A stretch of 64,000 nt of DNA from Planctomycetota bacterium. Lineage in GTDB: Bacteria > Planctomycetota > B15-G4 > JADJEK01. Of this stretch, positions 23,575 to 57,746 are shown in pieces. Where the stretch lies: contig JACQZJ010000028.1 of NCBI GenBank assembly GCA_016213895.1, forward strand, positions 1,653 through 65,652, given 5' to 3'. The position numbers and the translations under genes are program-made. How positions within the stretch are numbered: the stretch's first letter is position 1; every line of letters starts with the position of its first letter. A model generated the notes under the pieces. That model searched no databases. It saw nothing but the letters and a program-made list of their open reading frames with translations, and was not told where the DNA came from.

Positions 23575-23766
23575 GCAACGGGGCTACCATTCATGGTAAC
23601 CCGTGCCAGGCGGAGCACCAGCGCCCTGTGCCGGAACCTCGGCATTTTGTCACCCTGCGGCAGGGGGCCGCCGCCCGGCGGAGGCGCGTCTCCCTGGCGG
23701 CTTGGCCTGGCCCGGGCGCGCTCGAGATGGCAGGATGGCCTCGTGGGCAAGGTCCGGAGGGCGGCC

Positions 23767-35900: not shown

Positions 35901-36241
35901 ATGATCGGCAACGGCATCTACCGCTTGACCCAGGCATTCCCGGCGGACGGGCGCTTCGGCGTGACGTCGCAACTGCGCAGGGCGGCGACCTCGGTGCCGA
36001 CCAACATCGCGGAGGGATCGCGGCGGCAACGGCCGGCGGACTTCGCCCGGTTCTTGAACATCGCGGAAGGTTCCCTGGCCGAGGTTGAATACCTGCTGCT
36101 GCTGAGTCGCGACCTGGGCTACGTGGCGGGAAAACAGTGGAAGCCCAGCTTGGCGAGACGGGCGAGATCTTCGCGATGCTGCATGCGCTGCGCAGGAAGG
36201 TGGAGGACGGTAGCGGGCCGTCCGGAACTTCCGACTACTGA
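35901..36241 (+). pseudogene. Four-helix-bundle protein (TIGR02436; the '23S rRNA intervening-sequence protein' family), N-terminally truncated and frameshifted
   Basis: The core block YRLTQAFPADGRFGVTSQLRRAATSVPTNIAEGSRRQRPADFARFLNIAEGSLAEVEYLLLLSRDLGYV is in one frame. The C-terminus ETGEIFAMLHALRRKVEDG is in the -1 frame. The shift sits at an A4 run (GGGAAAACAG). Confidence 0.6.
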
Positions 36242-36325
36242 CTTCGAACTTCCGACTCGCGGCGGCGCCGGCCCGCTACAATCGAACAAGACGAGAGGAT
36301 CTCACACGAACTGCGGCGGCCGGCT

Positions 36326-37093: not shown

Positions 37094-37250
37094 AGGAGCG
37101 CGCGCAGCTTGGTGTGGATCTTCCCGCGCACCGTGCCGTGTGCCCTGTCCAGTTCGAGCGCGATCTTCCGGCTCCCTTTCCCTGCTCGAGGCGAGCGATC
37201 AGCGCCTCTCGGTACGGCCCCGGCAGGTCCCCGAGGGCTGCGGCGAGCGC
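37085..37250 (-). pseudogene. ECF sigma factor fragment (region 4 only), frameshifted
   Basis: Minus-strand translation gives LPGPYREALIARLEQGK, then after a 1-nt shift SRKIALELDRAHGTVRGKIHTKLRAL. This matches sigma-70 region 4_2. No region 2 is present. Confidence 0.5.
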
Positions 37251-37265
37251 TTCCCGGGTCTCCTG

Positions 37266-37280
37266 GGGGTGGGGGGGGGG
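37266..37280. repeat. Homopolymeric tract (G5-T-G10)
   Basis: The sequence GGGGGTGGGGGGGGGG is read directly. It sits in the 40-bp gap between the BNR gene stop and the sigma fragment. Confidence 0.9.
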
Positions 37281-37321
37281 TCGAAGGTACGGAAGGGTAG
37301 ACGCTTCCTTCCGCGGCGGCG

Positions 37322-39952: not shown

Positions 39953-40020
39953 GGGCCGTCCTTCTGGGTTCAGGGCGACGCAGGGCTGAACCCAGCATAA
40001 CCGGAGCCCGGCGCCGCAGC

Positions 40021-40533
40021 CTACGGGTCGATCTTCTCGAGCGCCGCCTGGATCACCGCCGAGAAGTCGGCGGGAAAGGGCGCGCCAGCGTGGCGCACTT
40101 GAACCGGGACGCCCTTGGTCTTCTCCAGCAGGTCGCGGCACAGGCCGCAGCTCTCGAAGTGGGAACGGGCCTGCTGCCTCGTCTCCTCGGGCAGGGCCGC
40201 CTCGTTGAGCGGGTCGGCGCACTGGAAGAACGTCTCGGGGTCGATGTGGCCGCCCCCGGCCTCCTCCATCCGCATGCTGACGAGCGCCGTCCACGTGGCG
40301 CGAAAGACCCAGTTGTAGAAGGTCTCGACCAGGTCGACGAAGCGGCCGGCGCGGAGGTCCGCGGCCAGGGACTGCACGACGCGGGCGAGGCGCGGAGCCG
40401 CTTCCACGTCGGCCTTGCCATAGAAGCGCACGAGCCCTTCGCGAAAGAGCGCCCCGTGGCGTTCGAAAAGGCCCTTCAAACCCTCTCGGTCGCGGCCGAC
40501 GATCTTCCTCAGGACGTCGCGTTCGGTTGGCAT
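40021..40533 (-). CDS. Hypothetical cytoplasmic protein with a C-terminal HxxxCxxC zinc-finger-like motif
   Basis: 170-aa ORF ending in the motif SHFESCGLCRD. It is divergently oriented from the B12-rSAM gene. Confidence 0.5.
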   Translation of the reverse strand: MPTERDVLRKIVGRDREGLKGLFERHGALFREGLVRFYGKADVEAAPRLARVVQSLAADLRAGRFVDLVETFYNWVFRATWTALVSMRMEEAGGGHIDPETFFQCADPLNEAALPEETRQQARSHFESCGLCRDLLEKTKGVPVQVRHAGAPFPADFSAVIQAALEKIDP

Positions 40534-40799
40534 GGCGGCGGATCCGATGCTATCTCACGGATGTGCTGTAACTCGCCGGCGGTCATGCACTTAGGCCTGC
40601 CGCTCCGGCGGGCGGCTTGCTTTCCTCCGTCCCTGAGGATACGTTCGCTCCATCGGGCGGCGAGTATACACCTTCGGCACCGGGGGAGCGCAAGACGACG
40701 GCCGCGCGCGTAACTGGTCGTTCCCGTTGGCCTTGAGGATTGCCGGAACAGCGACGATAGACACCTGAGAGCGCGCTCCGAGGGCGCCGGTGAGGAGCC

Positions 40800-42332
40800 A
40801 TGCGAGTCCTGTTCGTCCAGAAGTACCTCCCCGCCGAGATGATCGGGATCATGTACCTGTCGACGTGGCTGAAGAAGGCCGGCCACGAGGTCAGGACCCA
40901 GTTCCTCCCGGAGAAGGACTGGCTGGAAAAGATCAAGGAGTACCAGCCCCAGGTCCTGGCCTACTCGATGACCACCGGCGACCACGTGTACTACCTGGGC
41001 CTGAACCGGCAGTTGAAGGAGCTGACCGGCGCGTTCTCGGTCTTCGGCAACTCCCATCCCACCTTCGTGCCGGAGATGATCGAGGAGGAGGGGGTGGACG
41101 CCATCTGCCGCGGCGAGGGCGAGATCGCCTTCGCGGATCTCTGCAACCGCCTGCAGAAGGGCGAGGACGTCTCCGACACCAAGAACTTCTGGATCAAGCA
41201 GAACGGCACGATCCACAAGAACCCCCTGCGGCCGCTGGCGCATAACCTCGAGGCTCTCGGGTTCCCGGATCGCGGCGTCATCTACGACCACGGCGACTGC
41301 TACCGCGAGATCGAGCGCAAGATCTTCATCACCGCGCGCGGCTGCCCCAACAGCTGTTCCTACTGCTTCCACCACGCCTGGCGCGACAAGGTCTACGGCG
41401 CCACGGTCAAGGACTACGTGCGCAAGCGGTCGGTCGGCCACGTCATCGAGGAAATCAACCTGGTGCGCGAGAAGTACCCCTTGCGCTTCGTGCACTTCCT
41501 CGACGACATCTTCAACATCAGCGATCAGTGGCTCGACGAGTTCTGCGTGAAGTGGCCCAAGGAGGTCAACCTCCCCTTCGACGTGATCCTGCGCACCAAC
41601 CTTACCACCGAGCAGCAGATGAAGGACCTGAAGCGGGTGGGCTGCATCTCGGCGCGCCTGGCCTTCGAGGCGGCGAACGACTACATCCGCAACGTGGTCT
41701 ACAGGAAGAGCGTGACCATGGAGGACCTGAAGACCTCCTCCCGGCACGTCAAGGAGGCCGGCCTCCGCCTGACCTCGCTGCAGCTCCTCGGCGCGCCCGG
41801 CGGCACGCTCGAGGACGAGCTGGACACGCTGCGCCTCAACATCGAGTGCAAGGTCGACCACCCTTGGGTCAGCCTGCTGCAGCCCTACGCGATGACCGAC
41901 ATCAACGAATACACCAAGGAGATCGGCATCGCGGTCGACGAGTGGGACAAGTTCCCGGAGAAGTTCAACCGCACCACGGCGGTGCACCACCAGCACCGCC
42001 GCGAGGTCGAGAACCTGCACAAGCTCTTCCCCTTCGTGGTGCGCTTCCCGTTCCTCATGCCGATCGTGCCCTTCCTGCTCCGTATGCACTTTCTCCGGCC
42101 CCTCTACCTCGCGATCTACGCCCTGTGGACCGAGTACCTGGTGAGCGAGCAGAACCAGCAGTGGTCCGAGGCCACCGGGAAGCGCGGCCTGCTGTCGTGG
42201 GCGCCCGTCGACTGGCTGCACCGCACCACGGTCAAGGTCTTCCTGCGCCTGCGCGAGGTGCTCTTCGGCAAGAAGTTCAGGAAGGCCCAGCTCAAGCTGC
42301 AGATGAGCACCGACACCCTGATCCACTCGTGA
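40800..42332 (+). CDS. B12-binding-domain radical SAM enzyme (class B rSAM methyltransferase-like)
   Basis: N-terminal cobalamin-binding Rossmann-like region (VLFVQKYLPAEMIGIMYLSTWLKKAGHEV), rSAM motif CPNSCSYC, and a long C-terminal domain. GC is lower than in the flanking DNA. Confidence 0.85.
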   Translation: MRVLFVQKYLPAEMIGIMYLSTWLKKAGHEVRTQFLPEKDWLEKIKEYQPQVLAYSMTTGDHVYYLGLNRQLKELTGAFSVFGNSHPTFVPEMIEEEGVDAICRGEGEIAFADLCNRLQKGEDVSDTKNFWIKQNGTIHKNPLRPLAHNLEALGFPDRGVIYDHGDCYREIERKIFITARGCPNSCSYCFHHAWRDKVYGATVKDYVRKRSVGHVIEEINLVREKYPLRFVHFLDDIFNISDQWLDEFCVKWPKEVNLPFDVILRTNLTTEQQMKDLKRVGCISARLAFEAANDYIRNVVYRKSVTMEDLKTSSRHVKEAGLRLTSLQLLGAPGGTLEDELDTLRLNIECKVDHPWVSLLQPYAMTDINEYTKEIGIAVDEWDKFPEKFNRTTAVHHQHRREVENLHKLFPFVVRFPFLMPIVPFLLRMHFLRPLYLAIYALWTEYLVSEQNQQWSEATGKRGLLSWAPVDWLHRTTVKVFLRLREVLFGKKFRKAQLKLQMSTDTLIHS

Positions 42333-42454
42333 GAAGCGCTCTGGGGGCGCCCTGGCCGGCGGCGCGCGCCGCCTGAATGCCGCCGCACTCTTGCGGCCGG
42401 CCCGCGCGTTCCATAGAACTCGCGGTCCTCGTCCCGCTCCCACGGAAGCCCCAC

Positions 42455-44797
42455 ATGACCGCAGAGACTCGATCGGCGTCCCCGCCCGCGGAACGTGCCG
42501 GCGCCGCGCTCCTTCTCGCCGTGGCGCTGCTCTCCGCCTCCGGCCTGATGTTCGAGGTGACGCTCACGCGCCTGTTCTCCGCCACGATCTGGTACCACTA
42601 CACCTTCGTCGCGATCTCGGTGGCCCTGTTCGGCTGGGGCCTGGGCGGCTTCCTGGTGTGCGTGCTGCGCCTGGCGCGCTTCGAGCGCCAGGTGGCCTCG
42701 ATCCTCGGCGCGCTCTCCCTGCTCGTGGCCGTGACCTTCCCGCTCTTCCTCGTGCTGCTCCTCCAGGTCGGATTCACGCCGCACGACCTGACCTGGTACT
42801 TCCTGCTCAGCCTGCTGCCGTTTCTCGCCGGCGGCGCGGCGCTCAGCCTCGCCTTCGAGAGCCGCGGCAAGGACTCGAACCGCCTCTACTTCGCCGACCT
42901 CCTGGGCGCGGCCGCGGGCACGCTGCTCGTTCCGCTGGCGCTCTCCCGCCTGGGCGCGGAGACGACCATCCTGGCGATCGGCGTGCTGCCCGGGATCGCG
43001 GGCGTCTTGCTCCTCGCACCTTGCGGCGGCGAAGGGCGCCCCTGGCGGCTTCTCGCCGCGCTCGTTCCGCTCGCGGCCGCCCTCTGCGCCGCGTGGAACC
43101 TGACGAGCGACGCCCTGGCGGTGCGGGACGCTCCTGAGAAGGAGCTCTACAAGCTGCTCGCCGCCCATCCCGGGAAGGCGCGCGTGGACAGCGACCGCTG
43201 GAACGCCTACTCGCGCATCACGGCTGTTTCCGGGTTCGACGAGTTCCACATCGCGCGGCTCTTCATCGACAGCAGCGCCGAGACGAGCGTGCTGCGCTGG
43301 AACGGCACGGACCAGGACCCGCCGGGCGCCGCCTCCTGGTTCCGGGCCTTTCCCTTCCGCATGAAGCGCGGCGCGCGCGTGCTGGTGATCGGGCCGGGCG
43401 GCGGAACCGACGTGGTGCTGGCGCTCGTCACCGGCAGCCCGAAGGTGACGGCCGTGGAGATGAACCCGCTCATCGTGGATTGCGTGCGCCGCATCGGCGC
43501 GGCGGCGGGCAACCTCTACGACCATCCGCGCGTCGAGCTGGTCATGCAGGAGGGGCGCAACTACATCGAGCGCACGGACGAGCGCTTCGACCTGATCGTG
43601 CTCGGCTGGGTCGATTCCTGGGCGTCGGTGGCGAGCGGCGGCCTGGCCCTGACCGAGAACTACCTGTACACGCAGGAGGCGCTCGCGGCCTACTACGACC
43701 ACCTGACCGAGGACGGCGCGCTGGCCATCATCCGCTGGCCGATCGACGTGCGGCGCCTCGCGGCCAATGCCGTGGCGTTCCTCGGCGCGCGCGGGCTTCC
43801 GCCGCAAGATGTCGGCCGGCGCGTGCTGGCCGCCAGCCTGCGCCGGCCCGAGGCGGACGAACTGTCCACGGTCGAGACCGTGTTCCTGCTCGCCCGCTCG
43901 CCGCTTCTGCCCGAGAAGGTCGGCGAGCTGCTCGCCGGGCACGAGGACGCGTACTTGATGCACGCCCCGGGCCGGGCGTCCGCGCAGCCCTGGGACGCGC
44001 TCTTCTCCGGGGAAATGACGCTCGCCGCCTACGGCGACAGCTTCGACACGCTCGCCACCCCGGTGAGCGACGACCATCCCTTCTACTTCGCGTGGGACAA
44101 GCCGCTCGGCATCCCGGGCTTCGTGGTGCGGCTGCTGCTCCTGCCGGTCGGTGCGGTCGTGGCCTTCACGCTGCTCCTGCTCCTCGGCGCCAAGCGCCTC
44201 GGCTTCCGGGCGCCGCGCGGCCGCACCGTGGCGTACTTCGGCGCGCTCGGCATGGGCTTCATCATCGTCGAGGTGGCGCTCATTCAGCGCCTGATCCTGC
44301 TGCTCGGCCATCCGCTCTACAGCCTGGTGGTGATCCTGTTCACGCTGCTCGTCTGCGGGGGGATCGGCTCGCTCTGCGCGCGGCGCGTCCCGGCCGAAGG
44401 AGTGCGGCGCGCGCTCGGTTGGATCGTGCCGCTCGTGGTGCTGCTCTTGCTCGCCGGCGCCTTTGCCCTGCCGGACCTCGTGCGGGCGCTCCTGCCGCTC
44501 GCACTCCCGGCGCGCGTCCTGCTCGCAGGCCTGCTCGTCCTGCCGTTCGGCTTCCTCATGGGCATGCCCTTCCCGCTGGGGCTGCGCCACGAGGCGGCCG
44601 ATCCGGGCGGCGCGCCCCTGTCCGCGCTCTGGGGCGTGAACGGCGTGGCCTCGGTGATCGGCTCGATCTGCGGGCTGAGCCTCGCGCTGATCGCCGGCTT
44701 CACCTGGGTCTTCGTGCTCGGCGCCGTCTGCTACGCGGTCGCCTGGGTGGCGCGGCCGCGCGTGCCTCGCCTCGCGCAAGGCGAGCGCGTACCATAG
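42455..44797 (+). CDS. Membrane-embedded spermidine-synthase-like (aminopropyltransferase fold) protein with N- and C-terminal polytopic domains
   Basis: About 7 N-terminal TM helices. A SpeE-like Rossmann core (VLVIGPGGGTDVVLAL...VTAVEMNPLIVD...DLIVL). About 5 C-terminal TM helices. Confidence 0.8.
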   Translation: MTAETRSASPPAERAGAALLLAVALLSASGLMFEVTLTRLFSATIWYHYTFVAISVALFGWGLGGFLVCVLRLARFERQVASILGALSLLVAVTFPLFLVLLLQVGFTPHDLTWYFLLSLLPFLAGGAALSLAFESRGKDSNRLYFADLLGAAAGTLLVPLALSRLGAETTILAIGVLPGIAGVLLLAPCGGEGRPWRLLAALVPLAAALCAAWNLTSDALAVRDAPEKELYKLLAAHPGKARVDSDRWNAYSRITAVSGFDEFHIARLFIDSSAETSVLRWNGTDQDPPGAASWFRAFPFRMKRGARVLVIGPGGGTDVVLALVTGSPKVTAVEMNPLIVDCVRRIGAAAGNLYDHPRVELVMQEGRNYIERTDERFDLIVLGWVDSWASVASGGLALTENYLYTQEALAAYYDHLTEDGALAIIRWPIDVRRLAANAVAFLGARGLPPQDVGRRVLAASLRRPEADELSTVETVFLLARSPLLPEKVGELLAGHEDAYLMHAPGRASAQPWDALFSGEMTLAAYGDSFDTLATPVSDDHPFYFAWDKPLGIPGFVVRLLLLPVGAVVAFTLLLLLGAKRLGFRAPRGRTVAYFGALGMGFIIVEVALIQRLILLLGHPLYSLVVILFTLLVCGGIGSLCARRVPAEGVRRALGWIVPLVVLLLLAGAFALPDLVRALLPLALPARVLLAGLLVLPFGFLMGMPFPLGLRHEAADPGGAPLSALWGVNGVASVIGSICGLSLALIAGFTWVFVLGAVCYAVAWVARPRVPRLAQGERVP

Positions 44798-44802
44798 CGG
44801 CG

Positions 44803-45336
44803 GTGGACGGCGAGGCCGAGCTGCTGGAGATCCTGCGCGAGCACTGGGTGCTGGCTCTCGCAACGCGCGATCCCGAGGACGCGTCCCGCGAGCCCTACTC
44901 CACGCCGCTCTTCTACGCGCTCGTGGACGAGGAGCGCCTGCCTGGCTGCGGCGCGCCCGTCCTCGTCTTCGCCGGCAAGGAGTCGTCGGCCCACGGCCGG
45001 CACCTCGGCTTGGGCCCGACGCGCGCGTCGGCCGCCGTCTTTCTCGAGACCGAGACAGTGGGCCAGATTCGCGGCGTGCAGCTTCGGGGCCACGTGGTCC
45101 AGGCCGCGGCCTGCGCCCGACGCGCCGCCTCCGCTTTTCGGGCCGCGTACTTGACGCGACACCCGGTGGCCGCGCCTCTGCTCCTTCTTCCCGGCGAGAC
45201 GCTCTACGCCTTCGTCATCTCCTGGGCCAAGGTCACGGACAACCGCTTCGGCTTCGGCGTGCGCAAGGTCGTGGAGTTCGCGCCGGACTGGTCCGTCCTC
45301 GGCTGCGATCCGCCCGACGCCGAGCCAGCGCGGTGA
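44803..45336 (+). CDS. Pyridoxamine 5'-phosphate oxidase-like FMN-binding split-barrel protein
   Basis: GTG start 6 nt after the upstream stop. Sequence LEILREHWVLALATRD...PYSTPLFYAL is typical of the PNPOx / general-stress-protein-26 fold. Confidence 0.6.
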   Translation: MDGEAELLEILREHWVLALATRDPEDASREPYSTPLFYALVDEERLPGCGAPVLVFAGKESSAHGRHLGLGPTRASAAVFLETETVGQIRGVQLRGHVVQAAACARRAASAFRAAYLTRHPVAAPLLLLPGETLYAFVISWAKVTDNRFGFGVRKVVEFAPDWSVLGCDPPDAEPAR

Positions 45337-45539
45337 GACGGATCGTCCTCACGCAGGAAGGTCGGCGCCGTCGAGCAGGTTCTGCACCAGGCGGATCATG
45401 AGTTCCTTCTGCGCCGGGTCGCTCTGGGCGGTGAGAAGCGCCAGCGCCACCATCGCGTTGTCGGGCAGGCGCGGCGCGCGCGTCGTCGAGGGACAACAAC
45501 GCAGTCGGCGCCGCCGGTCGCGGGGGATTCCCCGCCGGC

Positions 45540-45810
45540 CGGTCCTCGTCAACCTCGAAGAGCAGGCGCCAGGCCCGGGCATACTGGGTTGTCGCCGTAC
45601 TCGACACATGGTCCGCAGCGCATTGCGGCGAACCGCCGCTTGCCATCGTCACCGACCGCGAACCGGAGAACCTGAACGGCGCCGTCGAGGCATGGTGCGA
45701 GGAGCATCGCGTGGTGCATGTGAAGAACGCCCAGCACACGCCGCAGCACATTCTCTGGGCCGAGCACGGCTGGCGCGAGGTGAAGACGGAGAGCGGCCTG
45801 GGTGCCCCGC
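45540..45810 (+). pseudogene. Degenerate DDE integrase-core (rve-like) transposase fragment
   Basis: YWVVAVLDTWS resembles the YLxxvlDxfSR block. IVTDREPENLNGAVEAWCEEHRVVHVKNAQHTPQ resembles the DNGxEF...PxxPQ block. A large internal deletion separates the two. Confidence 0.35.
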
Positions 45811-46180
45811 TCCTTGTGCCCTCCACGACCGCGGGGCGCCGCCGCCCCGACCCAGCGCCCTGGCGCCTGAACGAAGGCCGCCTGCGCAAGACGCTTGGCT
45901 TTCGCACCGCGGCGGAGCGTGACAAAGACCCGGCGCCGCGCTACAGTGCGGAGCAGCGCGAGGCCTTCTGCGCCGCCGCGCGGGACGCGTGCGCGACGCC
46001 CAGGAGAAGGCACCCTGCCGAACGAGACGCCCTGTGGGAAGTCATGGAGTCCCTTGGCTTGATCACCCGAACCCGAGGCGAGGCGCGGCGTGACGCCATA
46101 CCGGAAGTTGTTTCGTGAGCACTACAGGCAAGTGAGGCCGCAGTGAACAGACACCGCGGCAGAAAGAAGCGTGAACGCGG

Positions 46181-46708
46181 ATGTTGACGGGTCGGAGACA
46201 AGGGACTCTGCGGTCCGTATCGTTACTGATGGCTGCCTGGGTCTGCGGTTGCTCGGCCCGTGATGGAAGGGACGGCTGCGTCGAATGTCTGGCTACGGCC
46301 GATTACAAGGTGGGTGGGATCTGCTGTCGGTTGCCCATCAACTGGCAGAAAGGCGGCGGTTTCTGGTCAGAGGGAGGGGCCGGCGATACGCTGTTCTCCG
46401 GAAGGACGGGAGATGGGGGCGGAGCGGTGCACGTAACGATCAAGAAGGTGGGTTATGACTTGTCCGTCGAGATCTCTGAGGAGAACCTGGCAAGAGCCAT
46501 GACCATCGGTGGGCTGCGTGTGACGCCTTGTGCGATCGGTGGGTCTGATAGTGGAGCTTTCTTGACCTACGTACTCGACGATGTCGACGGGACTCGGTAT
46601 GTCGTGATGATAGATGGAGTTGCGGCCCTAATCAGACAACATATGGACTGTATAGGGACGTTTCTAGCATCAATGCGCAGCGAGCAGGGGGCGGGGAGGG
46701 GGAAGTAG
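46181..46708 (+). CDS. Hypothetical lipoprotein-like protein encoded by a low-GC patch
   Basis: Local GC is roughly 57% against about 70% genome-wide. Signal-like N-terminus (LLMAAWVCGCS). No recognisable domain. Confidence 0.45.
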   Translation: MLTGRRQGTLRSVSLLMAAWVCGCSARDGRDGCVECLATADYKVGGICCRLPINWQKGGGFWSEGGAGDTLFSGRTGDGGGAVHVTIKKVGYDLSVEISEENLARAMTIGGLRVTPCAIGGSDSGAFLTYVLDDVDGTRYVVMIDGVAALIRQHMDCIGTFLASMRSEQGAGRGK

Positions 46709-46879
46709 AGCGGGCGGACGGGTGCGCCGATCTGCGCCGGGTTGCGAGCCGGCGCGATCAAGTGCCGCCGGCATGGTATGGACGTGCGCGTCGTTCTGCG
46801 TCCGCTCCGCGGCGACCGCTATCGGTTCTGCTATCGGCGGAAACGCAGAGGCCGGAACTCCGCTCGCCTGCAACGACTT

Positions 46880-46954
46880 GGCGCGATCCCCTCCCGGTCC
46901 TGAAAACCGCTTAGTCGAAAGGCTACAGGAGTTCGAATCTCCTGCCCTCCGCCA
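46880..46954 (+). other. tRNA 3'-end-like fragment (T-arm, acceptor 3' strand and encoded CCA) without a matching 5' half; possible attachment-site remnant
   Basis: AGGAG-TTCGAAT-CTCCT forms a canonical T-stem/loop. It is followed by GCCCTCC-G-CCA. No complementary GGAGGGC 5' acceptor strand or D-arm is present upstream. Confidence 0.35.
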
Positions 46955-47100
46955 GTTTGTCTTCGCCACGGCGCGCACGGGGGCGCAGGGAATGGGGCTC
47001 CCAAGCCGTATCTGTGGGTGAATACGGATCGGGATCGCCGGCGGAGCAGGACTTGGCCGCTGGCCGCCCGCACGATTCGCGCGCGGGCTGAGGCCGCCCG

Positions 47101-48297
47101 TCAGTTCCACGTGCTCCACTGGATGAGCCAGAAGAAGCGGTAGCGGTTCTCGGTGGGGCTCGTCTCGAACTCGAACATGCCGAGGGGGAAGAGGGACAGC
47201 TCGGTCTGCTCGGCTGGAGCGCGGCCGGCGGCGCGCAGGAAGTGGCTGCTGTAGTTGGCGCCGAACTGGAAGATGAAGTCGAGCAGGGACCAGGAGGTCT
47301 GGTCGACGCTGCTCTCGTACTCGAAGAGGATGGGGAAGAAGAAGCGCGACGAGTCCATGGCGCCGGCCCTGACCGGGAGCGAAGCGCTGTGCGACCCGAG
47401 CGGGCCGAGGACGCTGAGGTTCATGTCGCCGTCCGCCGCGGCGGGCTGGGTGGGCGCGGCCTGGGCCGCGTCCGGCAGCTCCACGACGTCCGCCGGCAGC
47501 TTGAGCGCTGCAGCGCGGGCGCGCACTCCGTCGCGCACGCGCGCCAGGCTCACGTCCGTGTCGCCGTCCACGCTGAGCACGCGGTCGCCGCAGCGGAAGC
47601 CGGCGTGGTAGGCGGGCGAGCCCGTGACCACGCCCGAGACCACGGTCAGCGGCGCGGCCACGGCGTAGATCTCGGACGCGAGATCGGGCGGAACGGTCGC
47701 GACCTGCAGGCCGGTCAGCTCCTGCACTCCCTTCGAGGTCTCAAGCGGGAACGAATCGGTCTTGGTCTCGGTGACCTTCTTGCTGTCCGGCACGACCTCG
47801 AGGGCGAGGGCGACGCGGCCCTTCGCCTCTCCCTCGCCGCCGCCGGCGCGCGAGAGCTGGAAGGTGAGCGGCGCGCCGGGCGCGAGCACGGGCGCGAGCA
47901 GCTCCTCGAACTGCTGCTTGCTGACGAGCGGTTTGCCGTTCATCGACAGGATGACGTCCCCCTCCACGAGACCGGCCTTGGCGGCGCTCGATCCTTCGCC
48001 CACGCGCTCGACGAAGACGCCTTCCCAGGGTGCGACCGCCAGGTCCTTGGCCAGATCCGCGGTGACCGAGGCCACGACCAGGTTGACCGTGGACTTCTCG
48101 CGCTCGGTCGTGGTCACGCGGTGGATGGCCGGGGCGCTCTCGCTGCCGGGCAGCAGGCGGAAGACCACGCTGCCCCCTTCGCCCAGATCCTTGCGGGCAA
48201 GCTGCACGTCCTCCTTCGGGACCTTGACGGTCACGCCGGCGCATGAGGTCAAGGCGAGCAGCGCGGCGGCAAGAGAGAGCGAGTTCCTGATCAGCAT
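47101..48297 (-). CDS. Lipoprotein with two PDZ domains and a C-terminal domain of unknown function
   Basis: Lipobox (LLALTSCAG). PDZ signatures (GLVEGDVILSMNGKPL and AGFRCGDRVLSVDG). Confidence 0.75.
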   Translation of the reverse strand: MLIRNSLSLAAALLALTSCAGVTVKVPKEDVQLARKDLGEGGSVVFRLLPGSESAPAIHRVTTTEREKSTVNLVVASVTADLAKDLAVAPWEGVFVERVGEGSSAAKAGLVEGDVILSMNGKPLVSKQQFEELLAPVLAPGAPLTFQLSRAGGGEGEAKGRVALALEVVPDSKKVTETKTDSFPLETSKGVQELTGLQVATVPPDLASEIYAVAAPLTVVSGVVTGSPAYHAGFRCGDRVLSVDGDTDVSLARVRDGVRARAAALKLPADVVELPDAAQAAPTQPAAADGDMNLSVLGPLGSHSASLPVRAGAMDSSRFFFPILFEYESSVDQTSWSLLDFIFQFGANYSSHFLRAAGRAPAEQTELSLFPLGMFEFETSPTENRYRFFWLIQWSTWN

Positions 48298-48363
48298 GGC
48301 TGTCTCCGCATCATCTGTCGCCGGGGAAACGAGCGCCGGCGAGGGTTTGGTTCCACGATTCCG

Positions 48364-49620
48364 TCACAACGTGCCCCAGGTCTCGGACTCGAGGATGAGC
48401 AACGCGTTCTTCTCCCACCAGGAGTTCCAGTAGCTCGCGCCGTCCTCCACGCGCGGCTTTTCGTCCCGCGTCGCGCGCGCCGTGAAGAAGCGCTCGACGC
48501 GGTCGAGCGCGCCGCCCTGCTTCTCGCCGTCTCGGTCCACGGCCACGAGCCGGTCCGCGAGCGCGGCGTCGCTCTCCAGCTCGCGGCGCATTTCCTCGAG
48601 CCGGGAGAGGGCGAGCTGGACCACCTGCGGGTCCCTGTCCTCGAGCAGCACGAGCAGGCGCGGCACGATCTCGTACCGCGGCCCGAAGGTCTCGAGGCTC
48701 ACCCTGCCCTCGGCGCGCGTGACGACGACTGCGGAGGGAACGTCTGCCTCCGGGGCGGGGCTCGCCGCGGCGACAGAGACCGGAGCGGCGGCCTCGGGCA
48801 GGGCCCCGGGCAAAACCGGAGCGGGCGCCGGCTCCTCGGCCGCGGCGGGCGCGGCCGCGACCGCTTCCGCGCGTTCCCTGAGCGCGCCGGCCAGCGACGA
48901 GCCGAAGAGGTCGATGGAGCGGCTCACCTCGCGCGCCGCCTGCCGCACGGCCTCGCTGTCCACCTCGAGGCTCAGGTCGAGGAGCGGGCCGCGGCGCACG
49001 GTCCGCACCCTCTCGACCACCTTCTCCACGACCTCGGGCGGCGGCGGCGCCTCGGGCCGAGCCTCGATGCGCAGCGCGCCCGCGTCGCCGAGGACGAGCG
49101 AGACCCCGCCTCCCTGGCGCACGCTCAGCACGTCCCCGGCTCTCGGCTCGAAGACGTTCGCGGGATCGAGCGGCCGCGCGCGCCCGTCTCTGAGCAGCGT
49201 GCCTTCCCCGGCGACGAGCTGCAGGCCGACCGGCTGCGGGACAAAGCGCACGGCCGGCGGCGGCGCCACCGCCGTCTCGCCCTGCGTCTCCGGGAGGTTC
49301 GCCATGACCAGCACGGCCGCGGCCGCGCCGAGCGCCGCCGCCAGGACGTGCGTGCCCGCGCGCCGCACCCGCGCCGCACCGGCCCAGCGCTGCTCGCCCG
49401 CGGTTTCGCCGACCGCGGCCATGATCGACGCCACGTGCTCGCGCGGCGTCGGACCGACCTCGAGCGCGCGCAGCCTGGCCGTGGCCGCGGCAAAGGACGC
49501 GTACTCCTGGCGGCAGGCCGCGCACTGCTCGAAATGCGCGCGCACGGCCTCTTCGAGCGAGCCCGAGAGCCGCGCGTCCAGGATGTCCGAGAACAGGGGG
49601 AGGATCGCCTCACACTTCAT
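48364..49620 (-). CDS. Anti-sigma factor (zinc-finger ZAS-type N-terminus, single TM helix, large extracytoplasmic domain)
   Basis: N-terminal HFEQCAACRQEY (HxxxCxxC) motif. TM helix VLAAALGAAAAVLVMANL. The start overlaps the sigma-factor stop by 11 nt. Confidence 0.7.
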   Translation of the reverse strand: MKCEAILPLFSDILDARLSGSLEEAVRAHFEQCAACRQEYASFAAATARLRALEVGPTPREHVASIMAAVGETAGEQRWAGAARVRRAGTHVLAAALGAAAAVLVMANLPETQGETAVAPPPAVRFVPQPVGLQLVAGEGTLLRDGRARPLDPANVFEPRAGDVLSVRQGGGVSLVLGDAGALRIEARPEAPPPPEVVEKVVERVRTVRRGPLLDLSLEVDSEAVRQAAREVSRSIDLFGSSLAGALRERAEAVAAAPAAAEEPAPAPVLPGALPEAAAPVSVAAASPAPEADVPSAVVVTRAEGRVSLETFGPRYEIVPRLLVLLEDRDPQVVQLALSRLEEMRRELESDAALADRLVAVDRDGEKQGGALDRVERFFTARATRDEKPRVEDGASYWNSWWEKNALLILESETWGTL

Positions 49621-50206
49621 GGCAGGCACCTGGCGCACTGGCCCGGCCGGCGAGGCCGCCGGCCGCCTTCAGGTATTGGTCGCGGAAGGCGAAACGTCCC
49701 CGGTTCACCCGCGACTTCACGGTCCCCACGGCGCAGTCGAGGCTCCTGGCCGCTTCCTCGTAGGAGAAGTCCAGCACGTCGACCAGGCAGAGCGCGCTGC
49801 GGAAAGGCTCCGGCACGCGCTCGAGCGCCGCCTCGATGGCCGCCGCCTCGTCGCTGCGGCCGCGCGGGTCGAACCATCCGCCGGCCGCGGGCGCCGCACT
49901 GAGGTCGCCGGCGCAGACCTCGCGGCGCCGCTGGCGCTGCCTGAGCGCGTCCCGCACGTGGTTCAGGGCGATGCTGAACAGCCAGGAGCGGAACGAGCCC
50001 TCGGGGCGGTAGCGGTGCATGGCCCGGAACACCTTGACCCAGACTTCCTGGGCCAAGTCGAGGGCGGCGTGGTGGTCGTTCACCTGCTTTCCGATCACGG
50101 CCAGGAGGGACGAACCGAAGCGCGCGACGAGCGCCTCGAAGGCGTCGCGGCGGCCTGCCGCGGCCTCCCTGGCGAGATCCTCGTCTGCTGGGTAGGTCTG
50201 ATGCAT
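49610..50206 (-). CDS. ECF (group IV) RNA polymerase sigma factor
   Basis: Region 2 (AALDLAQEVWVKVFRAMHRYRPEGSFRSWLFSIALNHVRD) and region 4 (VLDFSYEEAARSLDCAVGTVKSRVNRGR). Confidence 0.85.
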   Translation of the reverse strand: MHQTYPADEDLAREAAAGRRDAFEALVARFGSSLLAVIGKQVNDHHAALDLAQEVWVKVFRAMHRYRPEGSFRSWLFSIALNHVRDALRQRQRRREVCAGDLSAAPAAGGWFDPRGRSDEAAAIEAALERVPEPFRSALCLVDVLDFSYEEAARSLDCAVGTVKSRVNRGRFAFRDQYLKAAGGLAGRASAPGACHEV

Positions 50207-50343
50207 CCGGACCGCACGGGAAACGCCGGCGCCTGCGCGGAAGTTCCCGCCCGACGCCGATTCTACGCATTCCCCTGCCGCGCGGCCGGGCCGTGTGCGT
50301 ATCCTGGGCGCCTGCCCCGGACCCGTGCGAAGGGAGGCGCGCG

Positions 50344-51408
50344 ATGATCATGCAGACTGTGCTTCTGGCCGCGATGCTCCTCTTCTCGCCGCAGGAGGGC
50401 GCCCAGGAAGCCGCGCCGGCCTGGCAGGACCTCTTCGACGGCCGCACCCTCGATGGGTGGGCGCGGCGGGGAGGCGCCGCGCTCTATTGCGCCGAGGAGG
50501 GCTGCATCGCCGGCGCGTCGGTCCCGCGCACGGCGAACACCTTCCTCTGCACCGAGCGGCTCTACGGCGACTTCATCCTGGAGTACGAGTTCAAGGTCGA
50601 TCCCGAGCTGAACTCGGGTGTGCAGATCCGCAGCTTCCTCGCGGGCGAGCGCGTCACCGGCTACCAGGTCGAGATCGACATGGACCCGAAGCGCGACCGC
50701 TTCTGGACGGCCGGCCTCTACGAGGAACGGCGGCGCGGCTGGCTCGACGACCTGTCGGACAACGAGGCGGCGCGCGCGGCGCACCGACTGGGCGAGTGGA
50801 ACCAGGTGCGGGTGGAGGCGTTGGGGGACCGCATTCGCACCTGGCTGAACGGCGTGCCCGCTGCCGACCTGGTCGACCCGGTCTTGTTTGAGGGCTTCAT
50901 CGGCCTGCAGGTGCACGGCGTGGGAGAGCGCGCGGACCCGCTCGTGGCGCGCTGGCGCAACCTGCGCATCCAGGACCTCGGCCGCCACAGGTGGCGCCGG
51001 TTCCTCGAAGGCCCGGCGGCCGCGCTCGAGAGCGCCGAGGCGTATCTCGACGCGACGCTGGCCATCGAGTTCCGGCTGGAAGGGTGCGGGCTCGTCGCGT
51101 CCTGGGGCGACATCCAGGTCCGGGTCGGGGCGGACCGGGGGAGCGGCGAAGTGCGGGCCGGCGAGGTGCTTCTTCCCTGGCAGATCGCCGCCGGGCAGGT
51201 TCAAGTCATGCCGGCCGACCCGGCCTCTGACCGCCTGACGCTCAGCCGGCACGGGCGGCGCGTGGCGGCGCACCTGAACGGCGTGCGGCTCGCCGATCTC
51301 GAGACCGCGGAGCCCGCGGCCGGCGGCTCCGCGCTGAAGGCCGCGCTCGACGGGCAAGGCGGCGCGGGCGCCGGCATCCTGCTCCTCGAGGTGTTGGCGC
51401 CGGAGTGA
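50344..51408 (+). CDS. Secreted DUF1080 (3-keto-disaccharide hydrolase-like concanavalin/jelly-roll) domain protein
   Basis: Signal peptide MIMQTVLLAAMLLFSP. The DUF1080 hallmark WQDLFDGRTLDGW...NSGVQIRS is present. Confidence 0.7.
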   Translation: MIMQTVLLAAMLLFSPQEGAQEAAPAWQDLFDGRTLDGWARRGGAALYCAEEGCIAGASVPRTANTFLCTERLYGDFILEYEFKVDPELNSGVQIRSFLAGERVTGYQVEIDMDPKRDRFWTAGLYEERRRGWLDDLSDNEAARAAHRLGEWNQVRVEALGDRIRTWLNGVPAADLVDPVLFEGFIGLQVHGVGERADPLVARWRNLRIQDLGRHRWRRFLEGPAAALESAEAYLDATLAIEFRLEGCGLVASWGDIQVRVGADRGSGEVRAGEVLLPWQIAAGQVQVMPADPASDRLTLSRHGRRVAAHLNGVRLADLETAEPAAGGSALKAALDGQGGAGAGILLLEVLAPE

Positions 51409-51415
51409 GCCCTGC

Positions 51416-52321
51416 ATGAACACGGATGACCGGAGCGCCGCCCTGGAGCGGCGCATCGCCGAGCTGGAAGCGGAGCTGGGGCGGCAGCGCACCTGGCGGC
51501 CGCCGGGCCACTTCTACTCGCCCATTCCCGATCCGGCAGAGGTGGAGAAGCGCCAGGAGCGGATCTTCGACTGCACGCCGCGCCACCTGCCCGGCATCGA
51601 CCTGAACGCCGAGCGCCAGCTCGGCCTGCTCGATGAGTTCAAGGAGTACTACCGGGAGATGTCCTTTCCCGTAGAGCGGCAGGACGGGAGGAGGTACTGG
51701 TTCGAAAACATCCAGTATTCCTACTCCGACGCCGTCTTCCTCTACTGCATGATCCGCCACGCGCGCCCGCGGAGCATCATCGAGGTGGGCTCGGGCCACT
51801 CGTCCTGCCTCATGCTCGACACGAGCGACCTCTTCTTCGGCGGCGCCATCGAGTGCACCTTCATCGACCCGTTTCCCGAGGCGCTGCGCGCCCTGCTTCT
51901 GCCGGGAGACGAGGCGCGCGTGCGCATCGTGCCGGAGCCGGTGCAAGACGTGCCGCTCGAGCTGTTCTCCGCGCTCGAGGAGAACGACATCCTCTTCATC
52001 GACTCGACGCACGTGGTCAAGACCGGCGGCGACGTCAACCACCTCTTCTTCGAGGTGCTGCCGCGCCTGGCGCGCGGCGTCTACGTCCATGTGCATGACG
52101 TGCACTTTCCCTTCGAGTACCCGAAGGAGTGGGTGCTGGAGGGCCGCGCCTGGAACGAGACCTACCTGCTGCGCGCCTTCCTCATGTACAACCGCGCCTT
52201 CGAGGTGCAGTGCATGAACACCGCTCTCGAGAGGTTCAGGACCGAGTGGTTCCGCGAGCACATGCCCCTCTGCCTGAAGAACCCGGGAGGCAGCATCTGG
52301 CTCAGGAAGGCGGGCGAGTGA
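51416..52321 (+). CDS. Class I SAM-dependent methyltransferase (Methyltransf_24 / CmcI-like)
   Basis: Sequence IIEVGSGHSS...ILFIDSTH. It starts 8 nt after the DUF1080 gene stop. Confidence 0.75.
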   Translation: MNTDDRSAALERRIAELEAELGRQRTWRPPGHFYSPIPDPAEVEKRQERIFDCTPRHLPGIDLNAERQLGLLDEFKEYYREMSFPVERQDGRRYWFENIQYSYSDAVFLYCMIRHARPRSIIEVGSGHSSCLMLDTSDLFFGGAIECTFIDPFPEALRALLLPGDEARVRIVPEPVQDVPLELFSALEENDILFIDSTHVVKTGGDVNHLFFEVLPRLARGVYVHVHDVHFPFEYPKEWVLEGRAWNETYLLRAFLMYNRAFEVQCMNTALERFRTEWFREHMPLCLKNPGGSIWLRKAGE

Positions 52322-52893
52322 CGCGGCGGCGGCGCGCCGTCCTGCTGCTTCCGCTCCTGGCTCTCGTTTCCTGGAGCGACCCTCCGCCCGTGCCGAGCAA
52401 GAAGGGGCTCGGGGTGCAGATGATCGACGATGCTCTCTCCCTGGGGATCGCCCACGCCACGCTGAACGTGCAGATCGGCGATCTTCTCGTTGCCGCGCCG
52501 CAAGCGGACGACGTGATCGTGGCCTGCGAGGGGCAAGAGGTGCGCTTCGCGGCCCAGGCTGCCGCCGCCCTCGACCTGCAGGTCGAGCCGCTCGCCGCCG
52601 CGGGCGTGCGAGTGTATCTCATCCTGCTGGCGCGCGCGACCGGCGATCCGGCGCGCGACGCGCTCATCCTGCACCGCCACGTCGACCACGCCGGAGAAGG
52701 CGGGCTGCGCCTCGGCCTGTGGACCAGGAAGGAAGGCACGCTCTGCGCCCCGGACTGGCCGCGCCGCATGCACGAGGTCTTCCGCCTGTGCCACGGGCCA
52801 GGGGGCGAGGAGGCGCTGCGCTTCGCCCTGCCGGTCATCGGCATCCAGGACTGGGGCGAGGTGGTCGCGAGCGAGGAGGGCGAACAAGGCTGA
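52318..52893 (+). CDS. Secreted hypothetical protein
   Basis: GTG start overlapping the methyltransferase stop (GTGA). Signal peptide RRRRAVLLLPLLALVSWS. Confidence 0.5.
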   Translation: MTRRRRAVLLLPLLALVSWSDPPPVPSKKGLGVQMIDDALSLGIAHATLNVQIGDLLVAAPQADDVIVACEGQEVRFAAQAAAALDLQVEPLAAAGVRVYLILLARATGDPARDALILHRHVDHAGEGGLRLGLWTRKEGTLCAPDWPRRMHEVFRLCHGPGGEEALRFALPVIGIQDWGEVVASEEGEQG

Positions 52894-53334
52894 GACATCC
52901 TGTCTCAAGCCCTCTGCATGAGACGACGTCGAAGATCGTCGTCGGGGGAGCAGGAGAGGGCGCTCTCCGCCGCCGCTTCGGCGCGCTAACGTGTTCGAAG
53001 GGCCTTGCGCCGCCCGCGGCATCGGCTGCACGGCCGCGCCGAGCCGCGCCGAAGGTCGGGCGCGGGAAGCCAGGTGCCGCGAACGCGGCTCGTCACGGCC
53101 GTGCGTGCCTGCATCTGCGGGCTCTGCTGGCACAAGGCCAGACCTAGCAGTGGTTGACGCGACCGCCCTGACGAGTGAAGGGCGGTCGCGCTGGCGAACT
53201 GTCGCGGGGGTGGGTCCACGTTCTCCGGCACGAGGCGAACGGACGGGATCTTGCCTCTCACGGCTTCAGGGCCAGGGTGCACGCGGTGGTGCGGGCGGGT
53301 TTCTACCGGACGAGCTGGTTGACGGGGGGCAGCG

Positions 53335-54042
53335 TCAGAGAGCCCGGGCGGCGGGAACCTCGCGCATGCTGATCAGGCCGCGCTTCCGCCAGCCGAGTCC
53401 GAGCAGCCAGGTTCTCGCTCGCGCCAGCGGGGGGTCTCCGTCCCTATCGCTCAGGCCGCGGGGCAGCCGGCCCGCGGTCTCCTTCCAGCCGCCGAACCAG
53501 AATCCGCTGGCGAAGGGATCGAGCAGCGCCTTCCCGAGCCGCGCCGCGTGCCGCCGCGCGTTGTTGAGGACGTAGCAGAGAGCGTTCCTCACCTCGCGCG
53601 GCGTCCTCAGGATGCGGGCGTGGTAGCGGTCGGCGAACACCCGCCCGTGGCGCTCCCAGAGCCGGTTCAGCGCCTTGGCCAGCCGAATCAAGAGTCCCTG
53701 CATGCCCTTCGCCAGCGCCTCCCGGTCCTTTCCCTCGCAGATCATGTGCAGGTGGCTCGTCTGCACCGAGTAGTGCGCCAGCCGAAACCCGAACCGGTCG
53801 CACCCAGCCGCGAACGCGCCCTTCAGCACACGGTAGGTCTTCGCGTCGCGGAGCCGCGGCAGGCCCTGCTCGAGCCGCACGGTCACGTGCACGGGGAAGC
53901 GCGCCGCGAGCTTCTCGCGCGTCCTGTGCGACAGCCCGGCCCGCTCCCCCTTGGGCTTGCGTCCGGCGCCGGGACGCCGGCCGCCACGCCTGGCGAACGC
54001 GAACCGTTGCTGGCTCGGGATCGGTTGTCGCTTCCTGCCCAT
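53335..54042 (-). mobile_element. IS200-like Y1 transposase of the REP-associated tyrosine transposase (RAYT) type
   Basis: HLHMICE matches the HuH motif. The catalytic Tyr region (VFADRYHARIL) and an Arg/Gly-rich N-terminus are present. Confidence 0.75.
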
Positions 54043-54362
54043 GTGATTGAGCAGATATTAGCCATTGGCCACCAGGAAGTCAAGCAGAAACCCACAGTTC
54101 ATGCGTGTCACACGACGAGGAAGCGCCCCACCGCGGCGGGGAAGTGGTGATCGACGCGAAGGGACACGGTCTTGCAGCTCGCCCAGGAAGATACGGCCGA
54201 AGCGGCCGTGCGCGCGGCAAGGCCTTGTCGGTCAGAGGGTGGCGGGCGGCGCGTGGATACCGGCGGGGAGGCTGAAGAAACGATCGCAGGGAGCTACAGT
54301 CACTTCAGGAGAGGCCCGTTCACCCCGACGTCGCGGTCGCCGCAGCAACGCAACTGGCTCGC

Positions 54363-57740: not shown

Positions 57741-57746
57741 CGGCCG

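Follow-up and report, generated by a model that had tools for sequence, protein, structure and literature searches.

The interval described here belongs to a 64-kb stretch of DNA (positions 1-64000, hereafter the window) and is probably a mosaic of dead mobile DNA in which three pieces without relation to one another adjoin: the right end of an insertion sequence, an ORFan cargo gene and an attachment (att) site for an element that targets tRNA-Ser(UGA) (Table 1). We interpret 46780-46994 as the probable attachment site left by an integrative element whose target would have been the anticodon stem-loop of the tRNA-Ser(UGA) gene. This site would consist of an element-derived arm with two copies of GCTATCGG, the tRNA from the anticodon stem to the CCA, and about 40 further nt. 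Elements of this kind bring along a duplicate of the 3' part of the tRNA; recombination into the gene then restores it and displaces the original 3' part to the element's far end. Here, only that far end with its orphan 3' part would remain, while the integrase, the element body and the regenerated tRNA would lie outside the window. We regard the site as a dead scar because an integrase, an intact tRNA and a second att copy are all absent from the window. An earlier note on this DNA had read the interval as the trace of an integrated element, and our analysis supports that reading in part.

Table 1. Features of the interval, with positions in the window
Feature	Position	Strand	Remarks
Patch that follows the stop of a PNPOx-like ORF (44803-45336) and reaches to the breakpoint of the insertion sequence	45337-45587		
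86-codon ORF in the patch	45349-45609	-	No Pfam or NCBIfam match
5'-truncated gene of a probable DDE (rve-type) transposase	45588-46118	+	Residues 108-290 of the 290-aa protein P0002
Terminal inverted repeat at the right end of the insertion sequence	46094-46121		Reverse complement TGCTCACGAAACAACTTCCGGTATGGCG; terminus ...GAGCA at 46121
orf175 module	46127-46721	+	Conserved 54-nt leader (46127-46180) and ORF (46181-46708)
Conserved spacer 5' of the tRNA piece	46780-46893	+	Homologous to L005 about 1592-1701
tRNA-Ser(UGA) 3' fragment	46894-46954	+	Last 61 nt: anticodon, variable and T arms, acceptor 3' strand, G73, CCA
Conserved sequence downstream of the CCA	46955-46994	+	Motif CACGGCGCGCACGGGGGCGCAGGGAAT at 46967-46993, common to L005

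A truncated insertion sequence and the low-GC gene orf175

Protein identity, truncation and a terminal inverted repeat show that 45588-46121 represents the last 534 bp, at the right end, of an insertion sequence with three genes that resembles the IS481 and IS3 families; the rest of this element has been deleted. Over 183 aa, the transposase fragment shares 66% identity with P0002 (tblastn, E=1e-73), a 290-aa rve-only protein encoded by the third gene of a parent element whose other products are a 436-aa protein with HTH and rve domains and a 249-aa protein without a family. The first 107 codons of the gene are absent and the frame is still open, with a Ka/Ks of 0.275 for the fragment. An intact copy of the element lies in contig L005; DNA homology to this contig begins at about 45573-45588, the left edge of the transposase, and the right inverted repeat in the window aligns with both repeats of the intact element (L005 7753-7783 and 10847-10876). 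No left inverted repeat of the insertion sequence is present in the window, which holds a remnant and not an element. L005 itself stops at the insertion-sequence terminus, and Logan contig L010 stops 10 nt short of it.

P0002 matches both the IS481 and the IS3 transposase models of NCBIfam over the catalytic region (E=1.9e-14 and E=2.1e-12) as well as Pfam rve (E=1.4e-4), with all scores under the curated cut-offs (IS481, 54 bits where 224 are required; IS3, 47 bits where 160 are required). The window translation matches Pfam rve weakly (E=0.11). As in these two families, which have DDE enzymes of the rve fold and TG...CA ends, the roughly 30-nt inverted repeats of the L005 element begin with TG. 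The element differs from them in its scores, which fall far under the cut-offs, and in its three-gene parent, of which the window retains only those last 534 bp. Searches of plasmids with the rve fragment (tblastn) returned only IS3 transposases at E=2-7, and P0002 had no relatives in viral contigs.

DDE transposases are not the enzymes that generate tRNA att duplications, and an rve fragment near a tRNA stump is not necessarily the integrase responsible. The earlier note had taken the rve-like fragment for an integrase core; the fragment is indeed present, but its assigned role falls away, as the insertion sequence from which it comes is distinct and has inverted repeats of its own. The remnant documents a rare three-gene DDE insertion sequence. 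To its left, the patch at 45337-45587 shows no homology to L005 or to L006, a contig that carries a relative of orf175, and its codon-position GC is unlike that of host genes.

The gene orf175 encodes 175 aa and has a GC content of 58.7%, against a window mean of 69.8% and about 72% in the flanking genes, in agreement with the earlier note's description of a low-GC gene. The whole module is 81.6% identical at the nucleotide level to L006 205-803, and the flanks are unrelated on both sides. Searched against 5.8 billion clustered proteins and against 1.84 billion representatives, orf175 finds only itself and P0004 (66-68% amino-acid identity), and it belongs to no family in Pfam, PHROG or NCBIfam; P0004 in turn has no relatives in viral contigs. 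The N-terminus of orf175, MLTGRRQGTLRSVSLLMAAWVCGCS, resembles a signal peptide or lipobox and includes LLMAAWVCGC, for which the counterpart in P0004 is LLMTAWVCACS; the earlier note's term lipoprotein would derive from this stretch. Compared with the lipobox [LVI][ASTVI][GAS]C, position -2 is C, which is atypical. The Ka/Ks of orf175 is 0.57. We read it as an ORFan cargo gene whose small product is probably exported.

A tRNA-Ser(UGA) fragment without its 5' half

Downstream of orf175 lies the 3' two-thirds of a tRNA-Ser(UGA), an identification that is confirmed. The fragment has the features by which a tRNA-Ser is recognized: an anticodon arm (CGGT at 46895-98, loop CCTGAAA at 46899-46905 and ACCG at 46906-09, with anticodon TGA), a long variable arm (TAGTC-GAAA-GGCTA, 46912-46925), a T arm with the TTCGAAT loop (AGGAG-TTCGAAT-CTCCT, 46927-46943), an acceptor 3' strand (GCCCTCC, 46944-46950) and the discriminator G73 (46951), followed by CCA (46952-46954). 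It folds as the three expected hairpins. Position 27 is unpaired (C opposite C43), with pairing from position 28, and position 33 is C where U is usual. This U33-to-C change shows that the fragment is no longer under selection as a tRNA or as an att site. The 3'-end fragment of about 35 nt that the earlier note reported is real, but it extends to 61 nt and includes the anticodon and variable arms.

Comparisons with other tRNAs agree with this identification. By blastn, 46894-46958 matches annotated tRNA-Ser genes of phages, including one for which the called anticodon is tga, and 27 nt identical to the 3' end of the fragment terminate a tRNA-Ser(CGA) called by ARAGORN in one metagenome contig. 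Aligned by Rfam to the tRNA-Sec model (E=0.05), the fragment appears as a 5'-truncated tRNA with a long variable arm. A single copy of the 27-nt 3' end is present in the window, where 0 copies are expected (100 shuffles). Neither ARAGORN nor Rfam makes a tRNA call at the site, as would be the case if the resemblance were due to chance, but this explanation is effectively refuted by the fit of 61 nt to three arms, an acceptor strand and CCA, by the absence of the 27-mer from shuffled sequence and by the matches to called and annotated tRNA-Ser genes.

We found no 5' half for this fragment. ARAGORN called 0 tRNA or tmRNA genes across 1-64000, Rfam gave no matches in the 64-kb window at gathering thresholds and no tRNA match in 46500-47400 at E<=10, and a regex search of the window found no Ser-type acceptor-plus-D-arm that could serve as a split 5' half. 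The sequence upstream of the fragment cannot pair with GCCCTCC at the proper distance to complete a cloverleaf. These results bear out the earlier note's view that the tRNA 3' end is an orphan, and no full tRNA is called here by the prediction tools. A permuted or two-piece tmRNA, an idea prompted by the T arm, the CCA and a U at position 70, was rejected: the ARAGORN tmRNA search was negative, no Rfam tmRNA match appeared even at E<=10, and the G discriminator and the Ser-type anticodon and variable arms also rule it out.

The three intact hairpins, the encoded CCA and the conservation of a similar piece in L005 might instead suggest that the piece functions as a tRNA-like RNA or supplies half of a split tRNA gene. 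We find this scarcely credible: the folding energy of the fragment is unremarkable (z=-1.15; 24 of 200 shuffles fold equally well), no promoter-like or terminator-like sites flank it, its 5' half is absent from the window and position 33 is mutated. No split tRNA genes are known from bacteria.

Nor did the window contain the partners of an integration. The second copy of the fragment that the earlier note envisaged as the other att site did not materialize: the 27-mer has no second copy in the 64-kb window with up to 3 mismatches, a whole-window repeat search was likewise negative, and a local repeat search of 44700-47200 gave short repeats at chance level only. An intact target tRNA with a matching 3' end, as used in Islander to identify islands, is absent from this 64-kb window of the 110.5-kb contig. 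A scan of called or likely ORFs for tyrosine recombinases (PF00589) found none in 30 composition-supported ORFs or in the ORFs of 42-50 kb. The pair that defines an island, a regenerated gene and a displaced fragment, was not found in the 64 kb, which speaks against this reading.

An att-like block common to the window and L005

The tRNA piece and its flanks recur in L005 (from ENA ERZ25039495 contig_79088) as a homologous block of about 215 nt. By blastn, 46780-46993 matches L005 1592-1801 at 69-70% identity (E=1.4e-24), with the block ending at 46993. The L005 piece is also a 3' part of tRNA-Ser(UGA), and in both contigs the tRNA similarity starts at position 27/28, in the 5' strand of the anticodon stem, with C27 facing C43 and pairing from position 28 onward in each copy; like the displaced tDNA fragments of Islander, each starts at a canonical crossover sublocation (anticodon or T region). 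The spacer upstream aligns locally with L005 at a score of 27, against 9.5 +/- 1.4 in 500 shuffles (z=12.4; 0/500 as good). Its direct repeat lies at 46818-46825 and 46830-46837, and both copies of the GCTATCG motif are kept in L005. We read this spacer as a putative element-derived att arm. Beyond the CCA, the similarity is short and weak (z=3.6; 6/500 shuffles as good), and this stretch is probably the end of the att identity block. The conservation of about 40 nt past the CCA fits an identity block that extends beyond the tRNA, and equally an unrecombined attP.

Within the tRNA piece, the variable stem is TAGTC/GGCTA in the window and GTCCC/GGGAC in L005, and the T stem is AGGAG/CTCCT and CGGGG/CCCCG, respectively, with all pairs preserved. 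Among four sequences, 6 pairs are changed on both sides, a number matched by 0/500 shuffles. These compensatory changes imply that the copies in the window and in L005 come from different functional tRNAs and not from one decaying pseudogene. No tRNA gene is called in L005 and no integrase is found within the 10.9 kb of it that were analysed. Small ORFs that lack Pfam matches flank the block there on either side, in the manner of element DNA, and 2.4 kb from it is an excisionase-like HTH_17 gene. The comparative case includes L005 as the sole other contig, one that is metagenomic and unrelated. In this comparison the shared arrangement, the spacer similarity, the common start and the compensatory stems favour an att site used by a tRNA-targeting integrative element over a random deletion; the earlier note, too, had ascribed the orphan 3' end to an element that integrates into a tRNA gene.

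We also considered whether a native tRNA-Ser(UGA) gene upstream of the PDZ gene might have lost its 5' third by an insertion-sequence-linked deletion, leaving a pseudogene stump in place. The truncated insertion sequence 770 nt away indicates that deletions have occurred at this locus, the C33 mutation represents decay, and the window holds no partner tRNA. Such a truncation is nevertheless unlikely, because L005 has the identical left limit at 27/28 and a homologous 110-nt upstream spacer, and two independent random deletions would not end at one base beside homologous sequence. Moreover, compensatory stem differences are not expected to persist in a dead stump, and the loss of a sole tRNA-Ser(UGA) gene is expected to be harmful.

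A second alternative keeps the att site and changes its history: 46780-46994 could be an unrecombined attP on an element fragment that arrived otherwise, in a larger transposon or by illegitimate recombination. This would suit the similarity to L005 on both flanks of the tRNA piece, and likewise the small ORFs and the HTH_17 gene near the L005 block. Breaks occur at 46111 and 46966 in Logan contigs from the same sample, with L002 beginning at 46966; since Logan was assembled from 31-mers, they may reflect a second copy of the segment in the population, which would also fit. We consider it improbable all the same, given the weakness of the downstream similarity, the lack of an integrase adjoining the block in the window or in L005, where an attP normally adjoins its integrase gene, and the defective tRNA that C33 would yield on regeneration. 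The surviving junction is most likely of the attR type and less likely an attP-bearing internal piece, and we infer that a tyrosine-type integrase made it.

It is very unlikely that the three-gene DDE insertion sequence itself mobilized the block, homing to tRNA-Ser(UGA) and bringing a replacement 3' end. The block and the rare DDE family do co-occur in two unrelated contigs with no integrase seen, which would be in keeping with such an element.

Known tRNA-targeting elements and the genomic setting

An anticodon-centred class of tRNA-integrated islands and prophages was reportedly described by Williams in 2002. Anticodon-centred att sites leave a fragment that covers the anticodon stem and everything 3' of it. 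In Islander, where this class is described, a 3' tDNA fragment is present in 3760 of 3919 islands and an anticodon-centred attP in 2083 (PMC4383910). The putative attR in the window resembles those of anticodon-centred islands in its orphan piece, which covers the anticodon stem through the 3' end and is oriented like the tRNA itself, in the element-type arm with short direct repeats 5' of this piece, and in the adjoining cargo of foreign composition within a stretch that varies between relatives. It differs in that no intact tRNA, integrase or island body lies within 47 kb upstream, in the small amount of surviving non-core DNA (at most about 2.3 kb), in the U33C change and in the identity that seems to continue for about 40 nt past the CCA. 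Phage mv4 inserts into a tRNA-Ser gene, at the 3' end of that gene (bioRxiv 10.1101/2023.11.06.565760). It shares with the putative att site here the use of a tRNA-Ser gene as attachment site and differs in using the 3' end, whereas the boundary here is at the anticodon stem.

The closest relative, at about 90% nucleotide identity, matches the window at 37313-44758 and 47083-58605, and 44759-47082 is unmatched in the contigs recovered from it. Both of these contigs (L001 and L007) end within 0.4 kb of the junctions, and more distant relatives are non-syntenic. Because the genes on the left, at 37313-44758, are syntenic with the closest relative and host-like in codon composition, any island body has to have been lost by deletion, unless a rearrangement shifted the junction. 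The locus is ordinary genome debris from a past integration, of little import beyond annotation. It would mark tRNA-Ser(UGA) as an integration target in a Phycisphaerae-like lineage, and the scar would explain the short-read assembly breaks in the population. The conserved att arm with its GCTATCG repeats could serve as a probe for the live element and for the integrase that goes with it.

No viral contig in the scans contained an exact match to the 34-mer or the 27-mer, and blastn against plasmids returned nothing. The GCTATCG-repeat pattern had 40 viral matches, none with the att block, and these were put down to chance. A metagenome scan with the 3' end of the fragment recovered two unrelated contigs (L003 and L004) that have only the tRNA 3' end in common. 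A direct repeat (12085-12180 and 53001-53132) brackets the locus, but it was rejected as an island boundary or att pair: it is REP-like and intergenic, and lies beside a Y1-transposase-like gene.

The tRNA-like sequence at 46894-46954

The forward-strand segment 46894-46954 is the 3'-terminal 61 nt of a tRNA-Ser(UGA), folding into exactly three hairpins (anticodon, variable, and T). The earlier note had described a fragment of roughly 35 nt with a T arm, an acceptor 3' strand, and CCA but without a 5' half. That motif is present, but the piece is larger and includes the anticodon and variable arms. The absence of a 5' half was borne out: in the window, ARAGORN called no tRNA or tmRNA gene (positions 1-64000), and hence no intact partner, Rfam reported no hit passing its gathering thresholds and, around the fragment, no tRNA even at E<=10, and a Ser-type acceptor-plus-D-arm sequence is absent. 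Nor does the window hold a second copy of the fragment that could serve as the other att site; its 27-nt 3' end occurs once, where shuffles expect 0.

By blastn, the region matched annotated phage tRNA-Ser genes from exactly 46894/5, one of them with anticodon tga. Cut at 46893, the sequence aligns in Rfam as a 5'-truncated long-variable-arm tRNA (E=0.05), and the identical 27 nt close an ARAGORN-called tRNA-Ser(CGA) on metagenome contig L004.

Features of the tRNA fragment (window) and inverted repeats of the homologous insertion sequence (contig L005)
Feature	Position	Strand	Context
Position 27, unpaired C	46894	+	tRNA fragment
Anticodon stem 5' strand CGGT	46895-98	+	tRNA fragment
Anticodon loop CCTGAAA, anticodon TGA, C at position 33	46899-46905	+	tRNA fragment
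Anticodon stem 3' strand ACCG	46906-09	+	tRNA fragment
Variable arm TAGTC-GAAA-GGCTA	46912-25	+	tRNA fragment
T arm AGGAG-TTCGAAT-CTCCT	46927-43	+	tRNA fragment
Acceptor 3' strand GCCCTCC	46944-50	+	tRNA fragment
Discriminator G	46951	+	tRNA fragment
3' end CCA	46952-54	+	tRNA fragment
L005 element inverted repeats TGCTCACGAAAAGACTTCCGGTACGGCG	7753-7783 and 10847-10876		bracket three genes

L004 (Ga0066903_101898650; 1.1 kb, 58.5% GC) carries six tRNA genes within 750 nt (121-867: Ser-CGA, Trp, Leu-CAA, Leu-GAG, Tyr, Ser-GCT). On metagenome contig L003 (Ga0193725_1000326), a full-length sequence resembling tRNA-Ser/Sec, with UGA in its anticodon loop, spans positions 1646-1735 and ends in the same 27 nt as the window fragment. 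Its anticodon stem is weak and T4 and C69 are mismatched; it receives no ARAGORN call and only 25.6 bits from the Rfam tRNA-Sec model. Window 46893-46960 also aligns (E=0.026) with the central part of sX4 (RF02223), a Xanthomonas sRNA model whose consensus itself resembles the 3' part of a tRNA plus a following CCA.

A shared att-like block and the probable origin of the scar

Window 46780-46993 is homologous to positions 1592-1801 of metagenome contig L005 (69-70% identity, E=1.4e-24). L005 has its own tRNA-Ser(UGA) 3' piece (1702-1762), in which U33 is normal and which likewise receives no tRNA call. In both sequences tRNA likeness begins at the identical point, with C27 unable to pair with C43 and pairing from position 28. 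The upstream spacer is shared as well (score 27 vs 9.5 +/- 1.4; 0/500 shuffles as high). Within it, a GCTATCG(G) motif occurs twice at a distance of 12 nt (46818-25 and 46830-37 in the window), and L005 has kept both copies. After CCA, weaker similarity continues for about 28-40 nt (z=3.6).

The variable stem reads TAGTC/GGCTA in the window and GTCCC/GGGAC in L005, the T stem AGGAG/CTCCT and CGGGG/CCCCG, respectively, with all pairs retained. Counted over the two pieces plus two further tRNA-Ser-like sequences, there are 6 double-sided pair changes, against 2.6 +/- 1.1 in shuffles (0/500 reach 6). These compensatory changes indicate that the two pieces descend from different working tRNAs, and their identical left limit with an adjoining homologous arm argues that one kind of site-specific recombination made both. 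Two random deletions would not yield such a limit and arm.

An element that inserts into a tRNA gene has the gene's 3' portion in its attP; recombination rebuilds the gene on one side of the element, and the 3' portion it displaced stays on the other (PMC4383910). Pieces that run from anticodon stem to 3' end typify the anticodon-centred class, to which 2083 of 3919 Islander islands belong (PMC4383910). By this analogy, window 46780-46994 is most likely an attR, the junction of a tRNA-integrating element. Cargo (orf175, a low-GC ORF of 175 aa) and an element arm would lie to its left, and the host PDZ gene is 146 nt to its right. The element body, integrase, and regenerated tRNA would since have been lost or split off through rearrangement, plausibly by the deletion that took most of the adjacent insertion sequence. 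Scans of the 30 composition-supported ORFs and of local ORFs gave no PF00589 domain, and C33 fits a tRNA piece no longer under selection. The block might instead be an attP that never recombined, on a piece of an element left stranded here, which we consider quite unlikely. The earlier note's interpretation is partly right: the stump would be the integration footprint that it proposed, as the L005 block and its identical left limit suggest, but the rve fragment is probably the tail of an unrelated insertion sequence, and the intact partner tRNA was not seen.

To the left of the scar, GC3 of the genes resembles that of the host (0.85-0.97), and many of these genes carry housekeeping-type Pfam domains; they are not an island body. 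The closest genome found, MAG GCA_020723465.1 (DYIW01; ~87-90% nucleotide identity), aligns to window 37313-44758 and 47083-58605, with no match in its contigs to 44759-47082; both contigs stop at the scar, where the synteny comparison ends. In this relative a REP-like repeat follows the spermidine-synthase-like gene, and an AAA_14 ATPase gene follows the PDZ gene. Logan contigs of SRR12113406 match window 36241-46111 and 46966-51061 at 100% and 99.98% identity. With the k=31 that Logan uses, these breaks at 46111 and 46966 suggest a repeated or polymorphic state, within the population, of the stretch they enclose. Overall, the feature is a fresh instance of a very well-known kind, a tDNA att remnant next to the debris of an insertion sequence, mildly unusual only for its rare three-gene DDE element and ORFan gene.

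The insertion-sequence tail and the low-GC gene

Pfam rve matches the window fragment marginally (E=0.11), and ORF 45711-46118 is NCBI protein MBI4878723.1, 'MAG: hypothetical protein HY812_03560 [Planctomycetes bacterium]', from a contig of 110,544 bp. The window translation shares 66% identity with residues 108-290 of P0002, a 290-aa protein of L005, which itself matches the NCBIfam IS481 (E=1.9e-14) and IS3 (E=2.1e-12) transposases and Pfam rve (E=1.4e-4), all under curated cut-offs. Its family is very rare, with 2 matches to the window fragment among 5.8 billion clustered proteins. In L005 (ENA ERZ25039495 contig_79088) it belongs to a three-gene insertion sequence (7753-10876) with inverted repeats of ~30 nt at both ends, ~6 kb downstream of the att-like block. 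The genes are, in order, a 436-aa HTH+rve IS481-like transposase, a 249-aa protein without Pfam, PHROG, or NCBIfam match, and the rve-type P0002.

The right inverted repeat is present at window 46094-46121, which sets the element terminus at 46121. DNA homology to the L005 element starts at ~45573-45588, so the window appears to retain only 534 bp at the right end of an insertion sequence of ~3.1 kb, which has lost its left repeat, both upstream genes, and codons 1-107 of the third gene. Given this repeat and the P0002 identity, what had been taken for an integrase-core remnant is probably an unrelated DDE transposase remnant, not the integrase type that makes tRNA att sites. L005 ends at the element terminus and Logan contig L010 10 nt short of it, as expected of a multi-copy element.

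The low-GC gene is confirmed: ORF 46181-46708 has 58.7% GC, vs ~70% for the window, and weak codon-position bias. Block 46127-46721 is 81.6% identical to L006, a Logan contig from another run, with unrelated flanks on both sides and a Ka/Ks of 0.57 for orf175. Searched against 5.8 billion clustered proteins, and against 1.84 billion representatives, orf175 matched just itself and the L006 homologue, and Pfam, PHROG, and NCBIfam give no family match. The N-terminus is signal-peptide-like with an atypical lipobox, from which a lipoprotein is a guess. The 54-nt leader (46127-46180) is ~96% identical to L006, vs ~80% for the coding region, and may be a sequence conserved for regulation or recombination.

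Other repeats and transposase traces

An intergenic repeat of ~95 nt ending in a GC-rich hairpin occurs at 12085-12180 and 53001-53132 (77-83% identity); being REP-like, it was rejected as the att pair of the locus. The second copy adjoins gene 53335-54042 (-), whose 235-aa product weakly matches IS200-like Y1 transposases (PF01797, E=0.0025), and the repeats and gene may represent a REP together with its associated transposase. Next to the first copy, a 184-aa ORF (12257-12808) matches the Mu transposase C-terminal domain only (PF22483, E=5.5e-10) and looks like another transposase remnant.

A second intergenic repeat, of ~340 nt with GTCGCGGCCGTTT(T)CCCCGG motifs, lies at window 32137-32475 and at non-syntenic places in two of the relative's contigs (L007 12341-12774, L001 4301-4441; 72-84% identity); one copy, after the spermidine-synthase-like gene, is the end point of synteny with the window. 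Genes 6609-8132 and 8398-9441 are neighbouring FGE-sulfatase paralogues, 75-89% identical over several stretches, and ORF 22141-23583 contains a 300-nt direct repeat (22810-23457; 348-nt spacing, 80% identity).
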